A DNA stretch of 58,932 nucleotides from Candidatus Woesearchaeota archaeon (GTDB lineage Archaea > Nanobdellota > Nanobdellia > Pacearchaeales > GW2011-AR1). Shown piece after piece: positions 52,056 through 53,616 of the stretch. The stretch spans positions 1 through 58,932 of the forward strand of contig CAZDCI010000002.1 of assembly GCA_964503975.1 (NCBI GenBank), read 5' to 3'. The notes under the pieces were generated by a model. It had not been told where the DNA came from and searched no databases. It was given only the letters and a program-made list of their open reading frames with translations. Position 1 is the first letter of the stretch, and the number at the start of each line of letters is the position of its first letter. Made by a program: the position numbers and the translations under genes.

Positions 52056-52664
52056 ATGACACACGTATTGCCTGAGCTTCCGTATGATTTTGATTCTTTA
52101 GAACCTTACATAGATGCTAAAACAATGGAAATTCATCATGACAGGCATCATGCAGGTTATGTTAAAAAGTTAAACGCTGCTTTGGAAGATACAGGCTTGG
52201 AGGACAAGCCTGTTGAAGAGCTTTTAAACGATTTAAGCGCTTTGCCTGAAGACAAAAAACAAGCAATTATTAATAACGGCGGAGGACACCTAAACCATAG
52301 TTTTTTCTGGCCTTTGCTAAAAAAAGAAATTTCACCTCAAGGAGAAGTTGTTGAAGCGATTAAAGAAAAATTCAACTCACTAGATGAATTTAAAGAAGCT
52401 TTTGCCGAAGCAGCAACGGGACAATTTGGCTCAGGATGGGCGTGGCTTGTCGTTAATGAAAATGGTGAGCTTGAAATCATTTCCACTACAAACCAAGACT
52501 CTCCTATTAGTGAAGGTAAAAAACCCGTCTTAGGTTTGGATGTTTGGGAACACGCATACTATGTTAAGTATTTCTGGAACAGACCTAAGTATATAGATGC
52601 CTTCTTTAATATAATCAATTGGGAGCAAGTTGAAAAAAATTATCAAGAAGCTAAGGCAGAATAA
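52056..52664 (+). CDS. sod: Fe/Mn superoxide dismutase
   Basis: [25 protein letters not shown] and DVWEHAYY provide the metal ligands and family signatures. Confidence 0.95.
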   Translation: [202 protein letters not shown]

Positions 52665-53474
52665 TCATTTTCCATTATTAAGCCAATTTTCTACATAAGA
52701 AACTTTTTCTGGCTTTAATTTTATAGTATGAAACTTATCAAAAAATCTTTGGATATATTCTTTCCTATAAATTCTAAGATGGTAGGAGGTTTTATTTCCA
52801 TTCCAATGGAGTTTAGGTTTCTGAATTGAATACCTCGCTTCAATGTTAAAATGTCTCTTGAATAATTTTCTAATTACCTCTAAAATAGAGTAGTCTGTGT
52901 TACATATATCTAAACATATTTTTGGAGTTTTTCTTACTTTTTCTTTTATTATTTTAACACATCCTTCAGCATCAAAATATCCTTCAATAAATTGTAGGGC
53001 TTTCTCATGATTTTTCGTTTTAAATAAATTCTTCAGAGATTCTAAATCTTTTCTGGTATTTCTTAATAAAAGATACAATTCAATATTCCATGTTCTAAGA
53101 TGCCATACGTTTTTACTTTTTTCAGGATATCCCTTAATCCTTCTTTTCATACATACTAAAAGTTTATCTGAATATTTATCAATAAATTCTTTTTCTCCAC
53201 TTACAATTACCATGTATTTATTCTGTTTTTTCCAATGGTAGGCACAACCATCTCCTAACAAAGCACCCAAAACATAAAACAATTCCTTATTATATTCTAA
53301 TTTTCTTTTTCCAAAAGGAGAATTACCGTACTTATACCATCCATACATAGTATGATAGGGTAAACCAAACTTATCTTGAACTCTCTTTAATAATTCTGTT
53401 TGAGGCACATTATTTCTCTTCAATTTTAACATAAAATTATATGCATTCACCCTTGTTTCTACAGCAGAAATCAT
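52665..53474 (-). mobile_element. Free-standing double-motif LAGLIDADG homing-endonuclease gene
   Basis: Motifs LGALLGDGCAY and IEGYFDAEGCV. Its stop codon abuts the sod stop. It sits between the functional sod tail and a sod-tail remnant. Confidence 0.8.
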
Positions 53475-53538
53475 CTTACAATAATTTACACAAACTTCTA
53501 TAAATACATTTATAACGACGATATAATGGCAAACATAA

Positions 53539-53616
53539 AATCATATACAGGCTTTCTGGAACATTGTCAACTGGGAAAAGGTCAACGAGAATTATTTGAA
53601 AGGTAAAAGCGAGTGA
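53539..53616 (+). pseudogene. Remnant of a diverged sod 3' end (25 codons plus stop)
   Basis: Reads NHIQAFWNIVNWEKVNENYLKGKSE-stop, against the sod tail [25 protein letters not shown]-stop, and lies 952 nt downstream of it. Confidence 0.85.

Follow-up and report, generated by a model that had tools for sequence, protein, structure and literature searches.

The 3′ end of the superoxide dismutase gene (sod) of a Woesearchaeota genome has probably been taken over by a mobile cassette of ~0.95-1.0 kb, which comprises a replacement gene end, a convergent and free-standing homing endonuclease gene (HEG) of the LAGLIDADG type and the promoter of that gene, and which would spread by cutting and repair of sod alleles. 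The DNA in question, hereafter termed the window, is a stretch of 58,932 nucleotides from Candidatus Woesearchaeota archaeon (assembly GCA_964503975.1, contig CAZDCI010000002.1), and coordinates given without a locus handle refer to it. We base this reading on a second, displaced sod end that lies beyond the endonuclease gene, on comparisons of both gene ends with sod genes that lack the insert, on a recoded sequence in the alleles that carry it, and on the occurrence of one endonuclease family at one junction across phyla.

Two sod Ends and an Endonuclease Gene Between Them

The locus is composed of the following features:

52056..52553, + strand: native body of the Fe/Mn sod gene, codons 1-166, ending at the metal-ligand motif D162-V-W-E-H166
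52554..52664, + strand: working sod tail, codons 167-202 and stop, putatively cassette-borne; its left edge is uncertain, from codon 167 to ~178
52665..53474, - strand: free-standing gene for a single-chain LAGLIDADG endonuclease of 269 aa (Pfam LAGLIDADG_3)
53475..53526, - strand: promoter-like leader of the endonuclease gene, forming the right end of the cassette as read from the sequence
53527..53616, + strand: displaced and probably native sod tail, a pseudogene fragment, well supported from 53539 on (NHIQAFWNIVNWEKVNENYLKGKSE-stop) and weakly back to W at 53527
53617..54336, - strand: gene for a TrmB-family regulator (Pfam TrmB, 51 bits), given as context

The sod reading frame (52056-52664, + strand) is continuous and complete with 202 aa, and is matched end to end by Sod_Fe_N (101 bits) and Sod_Fe_C (139 bits). 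Its four metal-ligand positions (His, His, Asp, His) all lie upstream of the junction, and its body is 79% identical to P0122, the SOD of a HEG-free relative. A preliminary description of the window, made from the letters alone, had placed the end of sod at 52664, a LAGLIDADG gene between two sod tails, no nucleotide between the stops of the convergent sod and endonuclease genes, a sod remnant at 53539-53616 whose stop lies 952 nt from that of sod, and the abutment of this remnant on the TrmB-like gene; the open reading frames and translations bear out each of these coordinates. The translation of 53476-53616 reads ...I-stop-WQT-stop-NHIQAFWNIVNWEKVNENYLKGKSE-stop, so that the remnant spans 25-29 codons, depending on whether it starts at 53539 or 53527. 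It is the sole secondary match to sod in the 59-kb window by tblastn (residues 174-202, 48% identity, E 4.8e-6), and a sod hidden Markov model (HMM) aligns to it over positions 169-199 with a domain E of 2e-6 to 6e-6, which establishes the similarity to SOD C-termini that had been proposed. The remnant was also called in-frame, and this holds for its open frame of 25 codons but not for its absolute frame, which differs from that of sod (952 = 3x317+1); since stops precede it as well, it is a dead fragment. Because its own stop (53614-53616) abuts the stop of the TrmB-like gene at 53617, it marks the original end of sod.

The base composition divides these features into two groups. The remnant (37.2% GC) resembles the sod body (38.6%), and the working tail (52587-52664, 28.2%) resembles the endonuclease gene (27.4%), while 53475-53538 has only 23.4%. 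On the minus strand, TATA-like elements precede the ATG by ~25-45 nt in the leader (...TCGTCGTTATAAATGTATTTATAG...), and a block TATAAATA-NN-TTTATAACGACGA is conserved between the window and locus L220; the leader may well serve as the promoter of the endonuclease gene. Apart from the endonuclease gene and this leader of ~50-60 nt, the sod insert contains nothing more, neither an integrase nor repeats, and no intron or other RNA family of Rfam was found in 51800-54500. The endonuclease gene is not embedded in sod, being antisense to it and beyond its stop, a placement that is neither that of an intein nor that of an intron.

Which Tail is Native

The relation between the two tails is clearest at L220, whose endonuclease is the closest homologue of that in the window (70% aa identity; it came from a separate search and lies outside the 39-61% range of the scans described below). 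L220 has the same layout as the window, including the 0-nt stop gap, and its SOD body is 82% identical to those of L221 and L223, which have no endonuclease gene and whose sod sequence reads GTTTGGGAACAYGCTTAYTATTTGAAATACCAAAACAAGMGSCC... The L220 remnant matches the true 3′ ends of these two genes at 62/67 and 66/72 nt (92-93%) and at 21/21 aa, whereas its agreement with the working tail of L220 itself is limited to 17/22 nt. Instead, that working tail agrees with the one in the window at 27/36 aa (75%), and it is unlike the native tails found in the closest HEG-free relatives of L220.

A second comparison is provided by bacteria of the Candidate Phyla Radiation (CPR), for which we joined the SOD body of locus L025 to its remnant and used it as a query to collect the 120 closest homologues. 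After the WEH motif, 105 of the 120 tails measure 24 aa and 5 more measure 25 aa, reading AYYLKYQN(K/R)RPEYI..WW.VLKLI. The remnants of L020, L025 and L089 encode this short tail, which ends in WW(K/N)VLKLI ("...WWKVLKLI"), and L226, an example of a CPR sod with the short tail, has no endonuclease gene. The seven closest bodies, among them the carriers L025, L089 and L225, end in tails of 33-35 aa of another type, AYY(I/V)LYKW(Q/E)R..YI.NWWNV.NW.QV... Taken together, the L220 and CPR comparisons indicate that endonuclease gene and working tail move together and that the fragment is the old end of the host gene. The remnant is thus proven to be native in L220 and in the CPR bacteria, which settles for these loci the earlier proposal that the cassette brought its own sod tail.

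For the window, the evidence points in the same direction and supports a native remnant more weakly. P0122 agrees with the remnant at 16/25 aa and with the working tail at 14/25, and at the nucleotide level L049, L050 and L051 match the remnant at 50, 50 and 49 of 72 positions and the working tail at 48, 44 and 41. The remnant also has the VNENYLK typical of the lineage, while the working tail has QVEKNYQ, which is seen in other carrier alleles.

A Fixed Junction and a Recoded Sequence Beyond It

We searched for further remnants with the sod HMM on the sod strand, within 900 nt upstream of each endonuclease gene, which was feasible at 106 loci, and found a sod-tail remnant in 28 of them (19 distinct sequences). 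The remnant starts at HMM positions 166-173 in 26/28 cases and at position 180 in the other two, and none includes DVWEH. The insertion point is therefore directly after the codon of the metal-ligand His166, in the most conserved part of sod. The remnants are best preserved in L025, L020 and L029; AYYLQYK... is one beginning among these, and that of L029 reads FAYYLQYKIDRGAY... Two of the loci show additional features. At L033, 626 nt separate the remnant (3289-3375) from the endonuclease gene, a spacing suggestive of a further insertion between the two, and at L025 a second and weaker sod-tail-like match (3518-3562, E 0.07) lies beyond the first remnant and may reflect repeated invasion.

Carrier alleles differ systematically from other sod genes just downstream of this junction. 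The canonical YY(L/I)KYQN(K/R)R following WEH(A) is retained in 1/60 non-redundant carrier sods, against 92/119 closest homologues of the window SOD, and WEHS replaces WEHA in 31/60 carriers against 5/119 homologues. The working tail of the window carries the non-canonical YYVKYFWNR, which is typical of HEG-linked sods. At the nucleotide level, considering positions that are conserved in ≥80% of the HEG-free canonical alleles, carriers have on average 6.6 mismatches among the 17 positions of codons 171-181, compared with 0.4 in HEG-free canonical and 1.3 in HEG-free non-canonical alleles, whereas codons 162-170 stay conserved in carriers (1.5/18 mismatches). The window allele follows this pattern with 0/18 and 6/17 mismatches in the two segments. 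Such a recoding of codons 171-181 is the pattern to be expected if the target is replaced by a version that confers self-immunity, in agreement with the earlier suggestion that the cleavage site is probably destroyed.

A sod-Specific Family in Archaea and CPR Bacteria

A protein search returned at least 250 homologues of the endonuclease, mostly unnamed or tagged just as "LAGLIDADG family homing endonuclease", from metagenome-assembled genomes (MAGs) of Woesearchaeota, Nanoarchaeota, Micrarchaeota and Paceibacterota; the endonuclease belongs to an undescribed family. When genome and metagenome collections were scanned with the family alignment, close homologues (39-61% tblastn identity) appeared at 116 loci, and at 112 of these a convergent Fe/Mn sod gene lies next to the homologue, the remaining four contigs stopping ≤87 nt past the endonuclease gene. 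The stop-to-stop distance between the two genes ranges from -103 to +30 nt in 111/112 loci (exactly 0 in 24) and is 161 nt in the last. The genes on the far side of the endonuclease gene, by contrast, vary, with 44 unrelated clusters represented at 52 non-redundant loci. Since the same gene family occupies the same junction in 112/112 loci across phyla, we consider the endonuclease itself to be the source of the specificity. The preliminary description had regarded the arrangement as unusual for a chromosomal archaeal housekeeping gene; in fact it is not a single case but one member of this large sod-specific family.

According to their records, the carrier hosts include Woese-, Nano-, Micr- and Aenigmatarchaeota, Bathyarchaeia and Nitrososphaerales, as well as Wildermuth-, Doudna- and Paceibacteria of the CPR. 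The carrier contig L225 encodes RNase Y and is therefore bacterial; ahead of its sod lies a small gene with a GIY-YIG domain, and past the cassette one for a ParE-like toxin (1379-1684 and 3739-3981). An uninterrupted full-length match to the endonuclease is present in 96/112 loci, the others being truncated, such as L036, which keeps residues 179-266 only. Viral contigs, searched as potential vectors, yielded no close homologue of the endonuclease, and tblastn revealed no further copy in the window.

The SODs closest to that of the window, at L049-L051 (77-70% identity), have no endonuclease gene, so the arrangement is polymorphic, and the gene is also absent from L221, L223, L226 and 80 further sod loci. 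Insert-free alleles among relatives, which had been suggested as something to look for, thus do exist. A genome scan anchored on sod returned mostly distant bacterial sods, all HEG-free, and serves as background only.

Two of the HEG-free sods, at L049 (4001-4603, P0122) and L217 (1503-2102, P0139), nevertheless have the cassette-type F/LWNR after YY, and could be either loss footprints or representatives of the source lineage of the cassette tail. The L049 tail starts in cassette-like fashion (VKYFWNR) and ends in native-like fashion (NENYLKAKA), and is possibly the footprint of a cassette lost through recombination between both tails. Three genes downstream of this sod lies a SufB gene (5110-7629 of L049) with an intein that bears LAGLIDADG_3 according to precomputed Pfam annotation, so that the same genomes host other LAGLIDADG elements. 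As for the far-side neighbours, TrmB-family regulators with 24-32% mutual identity stand beyond the cassette in the window and in L005, L057 and L126, loci that are otherwise unrelated, which hints at an old sod-trmB pairing in which the TrmB-like protein is possibly a regulator of sod.

The Endonuclease

The 269-aa protein scores 56.8 bits with Pfam LAGLIDADG_3 (cut-off 22.5) and has two motifs, LGALLGDGC (D75) and IEGYFDAEGC (E170), each ending in an acidic residue. In an alignment of 29 homologous sequences, G74 D75 G76 and D168 A169 E170 G171 are invariant, although the mean pairwise identity in the family is ~49% (mean column identity 57%). An AlphaFold (AF2) model built on the alignment of the 29 homologues, with a mean predicted local distance difference test score (pLDDT) of 90.7 and a predicted template modelling score (pTM) of 0.86, has helices at 63-75 and 156-170, each followed by a beta hairpin, and thus shows the pseudo-symmetric alpha-beta-beta-alpha-beta-beta-alpha fold in two domains. 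Foldseek matched the model to I-DmoI (E 1e-9, target-normalised TM 0.68), I-Tsp061I (E 2.6e-8) and the endonuclease domain of PI-PfuI in the PDB, of which a sequence search gave a marginal match only (2dch, E 0.36). As a member of its class, the protein would be expected to cleave both strands at a specific long site (~20 bp), to which the fixed junction after WEH and the recoding of codons 171-181 in carriers point indirectly.

Ahead of the endonuclease core lies an N-terminal domain of ~60 aa with three helices. Thirteen loci are without it (L024, L026, L030, L033, L034, L077, L079, L084, L103, L104, L109, L124 and L130); their short-form endonucleases begin at a point equivalent to residue ~50-59 of the protein in the window and are still encoded tail-to-tail with sod.

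Proposed Mechanism and Alternative Explanations

In the mechanism that we propose, the cassette would consist, in sod orientation, of a replacement tail of ~25-36 codons with its stop, the convergent HEG and a short promoter. The endonuclease would cut HEG-free sod DNA that encodes ..D-V-W-E-H/A-Y-Y-L-K-Y-Q-N-(K/R)-R-P.., within ~codons 165-178, and the break would be repaired from a carrier allele, in which the sod body would provide homology on the left and the displaced old tail homology on the right. In the process, the cut allele would acquire both the endonuclease gene and the new tail. On insertion, the original tail would have been pushed downstream, to decay there while still abutting its old neighbour, in this case the TrmB-like gene. 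The new tail would preserve SOD function and, being recoded at codons 171-181 (YYVKYFWNR for YYLKYQNKR), would render the carrier resistant to cutting. The activity of the endonuclease, its target and cut site, homing through repair and the immunity of carriers are all predictions made from sequence.

Several observations weigh against this mechanism. An empty site with the same synteny, in which sod directly abuts the TrmB-like gene, was not found, the homologues of the TrmB-like protein in the genome collection having only ~30% identity. A remnant is detectable in about a quarter of the loci only. Endonuclease similarity follows whole-sod similarity (Mantel r = 0.58), and the partial Mantel correlation between endonuclease and tail, given the body, is 0.31, compared with 0.05-0.25 for control body segments; because the endonuclease tracks the whole of sod and the excess in the tail is small, much of its history may be vertical, or homing may occur just among close relatives. 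In some pairs of loci, such as L087 versus L002, L025 and L114, the tails are more alike than the bodies. In the window, the margins between native and foreign tail are small (16 versus 14 of 25 aa; 50 versus 48 of 72 nt), and the nearest relative, L049, is HEG-free and yet has the cassette-type VKYFWNR, for which reason the left boundary of the cassette cannot be placed. When remnant and working tail of each locus were compared in pairs through their ten nearest homologues, the remnant was not favoured (7/19 loci, p = 0.87), on a panel that was too distant for most loci, with decayed remnants and a misaligned window fragment.

The explanation that survives best beside homing is that the gene entered by homing long ago and is now inherited vertically only, the protein being inactive, domesticated or occupied with a function connected to sod, for instance in regulation or in binding DNA; we hold this to be unlikely. 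It would account for the correlation with the sod body, for the loss of the remnant at most loci, for the 13 loci without the N-terminal domain and for the lack of a homologue on viral contigs that could serve as vector. It sits badly with catalytic motifs that stay invariant in a family of ~49% mean pairwise identity, with a patchy distribution in which the nearest sod relatives are without the gene, and with the near-intact remnant of L220, whose 92-93% nucleotide identity to native alleles indicates a recent invasion. We also know of no function for a nuclease adjoining sod.

Less probable still, in our estimate, is the reverse polarity, in which the working tail is native and the fragment is a piece of a donor sod, carried by a cassette that inserted right after the sod stop. 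The small margins in the window, the outcome of the paired test and the VKYFWNR that the nearest HEG-free relative shares with the working tail speak for it. Against it stand L220, where the remnant and not the working tail is nearly identical to the tails of HEG-free relatives; the CPR loci, where the remnants are the short tail of the lineage and the working tails are of the foreign long type; the window remnant, whose stop abuts that of the TrmB-like gene as a native gene end would; and the GC content of the working tail, which matches the endonuclease gene. Insertion by another mechanism with the endonuclease as a passenger, whether through an element of the integrase type that rebuilds the 3′ end of the gene it enters, which the hisS array described below may be, or through illegitimate recombination, has a precedent in the window in the hisS tails, which were duplicated without a HEG, but is very hard to reconcile with a sod insert that contains neither integrase nor repeats and with one gene family at one junction in 112/112 loci across phyla.

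Starting from the homing cassette, one can go a step further and envisage a natural "home-and-rescue" drive that is active today, cuts the most conserved stretch of sod, brings along a recoded and resistant substitute for the C-terminal helix of SOD, has moved between the domains (DPANN archaea and CPR bacteria) among co-occurring ultra-small organisms and swaps protein modules, with L049-like alleles as loss footprints; we regard this wider picture as possible but somewhat on the doubtful side. No discordance of tail and body was seen between L002, from Woesearchaeota, and the CPR loci. The argument for movement across domains is solely the occurrence of the family in archaeal MAGs and on the bacterial contig L225.

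Duplicated hisS Ends in the Same Window

The preliminary description had likened the sod locus to a hisS array in the same window and suggested one shared insertion mode. The array comprises hisS itself at 25140-26291 (- strand) and two extra C-terminal copies downstream of it, at 23431-23333 (79% over 33 aa, E 5e-11) and 24563-24513 (71% over 17 aa), so that the tail copies are real, together with the following genes:

23505-24506, + strand: Fic/DOC gene, between the hisS tail copies
24556-24795, - strand: DUF2283 gene
24792-25085, - strand: open reading frame of 97 aa

What stands between these tails is thus Fic/DOC, DUF2283 and a small reading frame, but no LAGLIDADG gene, and neither a LAGLIDADG homologue nor any endonuclease or integrase is visible in the array. 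As there is no LAGLIDADG copy elsewhere in the window, the array does not involve the sod endonuclease. The result is similar to that at sod, with a gene end both replaced and duplicated, but an insertion mode common to both and based on an endonuclease finds no support. It suggests serial insertions of small cassettes, each replacing the end of hisS, and because the tails were duplicated without a HEG, insertions that replace 3′ ends also occur by other routes in this genome. A tRNA-His gene (26753-26824, - strand) lies directly upstream of the GNAT-hisS pair, and a reading frame of 154 aa (27245-27709, - strand) opens with an archaeal pilin-type signal (..NKGLSAVVTTLIIILLVLV..). Together with the best hits, this signal is what marks the window as archaeal from its own content, since scans with Pfam and Rfam and for tRNAs did not decide the domain.

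Relation to Known Systems

In Archaea, homing endonucleases have been described in introns of rRNA and tRNA genes and in inteins. To our knowledge, free-standing endonucleases that replace gene ends are textbook cases only in fungal mitochondria and phages, and a case in atp6 of Allomyces was reportedly described by Paquin, Laforest and Lang in 1994. In the fungus Endoconidiophora resinifera, free-standing HEGs occur at the 3′ ends of mitochondrial atp6 and cob, with partial C-terminal duplications (PMC6279837). These fungal genes are the closest analogue of the sod locus, since in both an endonuclease reading frame that belongs to neither an intron nor an intein lies between a working end and a displaced C-terminal duplicate, and the working end is thought to travel with the element. 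The sod case differs in being chromosomal, in occurring in Archaea and CPR, in its new target and in its convergent orientation with a TATA-like leader of its own and 0-nt spacing. Several of the mitochondrial endonucleases are co-oriented with their target or fused to it in frame, whereas the sod endonuclease is convergent in 112/112 loci. The sod endonucleases moreover form one coherent family at one junction in >100 loci, and the nativeness of the remnant is documented against empty alleles.

By structure, the best matches are the archaeal, intron-encoded I-DmoI and I-Tsp061I, which share the monomeric build with two motifs and the acidic residues that end both LAGLIDADG helices; the sod endonuclease differs from them by its extra N-terminal three-helix domain, by its location outside an rRNA intron and by its presumed protein-gene target. 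Intronless homing is known from T4-like phages, where the free-standing Seg and Mob endonucleases are of the GIY-YIG or HNH types (PMC2988022, PMC2790892). There, as would be the case at sod if cutting and homing occur as we infer, the HEG adjoins a conserved gene, its enzyme cuts alleles without the HEG, and the repair that follows spreads the HEG with co-conversion of flanking sequence, carriers being protected by sequence differences. The phage systems, however, operate in phage genomes during co-infection and are placed between intact genes without duplication of a gene end, whereas the sod element is of the LAGLIDADG type, resides in a cellular chromosome, and has replaced and duplicated the end of its target.

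Synthetic "home-and-rescue" and "cleave-and-rescue" drives direct a nuclease against a needed gene and supply a recoded, cleavage-resistant copy of the targeted part. The sod cassette as we read it would follow the same design logic, but the synthetic drives are engineered, based on CRISPR and used in diploid animals, whereas the sod cassette is natural, protein-guided and prokaryotic, and sod is not known to be essential in its hosts. A full-text literature search gave nothing relevant on a sod-linked homing endonuclease or on free-standing LAGLIDADG genes in DPANN archaea. The principle is known, and what is new is the chromosomal setting in Archaea and CPR, the target, the compact convergent architecture and the coherent family.

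Implications

The sod loci present a family of free-standing LAGLIDADG genes locked on one housekeeping target, with a defined junction and with empty alleles and displaced tails that can be compared directly. They offer a new meganuclease together with a presumptive target of ~20 bp, and may constitute a natural example of the nuclease and recoded-rescue logic of synthetic drives. For annotation, the last ~35 SOD residues in carrier genomes may be foreign, and the short pieces resembling sod and the LAGLIDADG genes labelled "hypothetical" that follow sod would be parts of one element. If the wider picture of a drive that is active today were true, the cassette would have converted the short-tailed SOD of CPR bacteria into a long-tailed form. 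The element may also serve as a marker of DNA exchange among the ultra-small organisms of groundwater.

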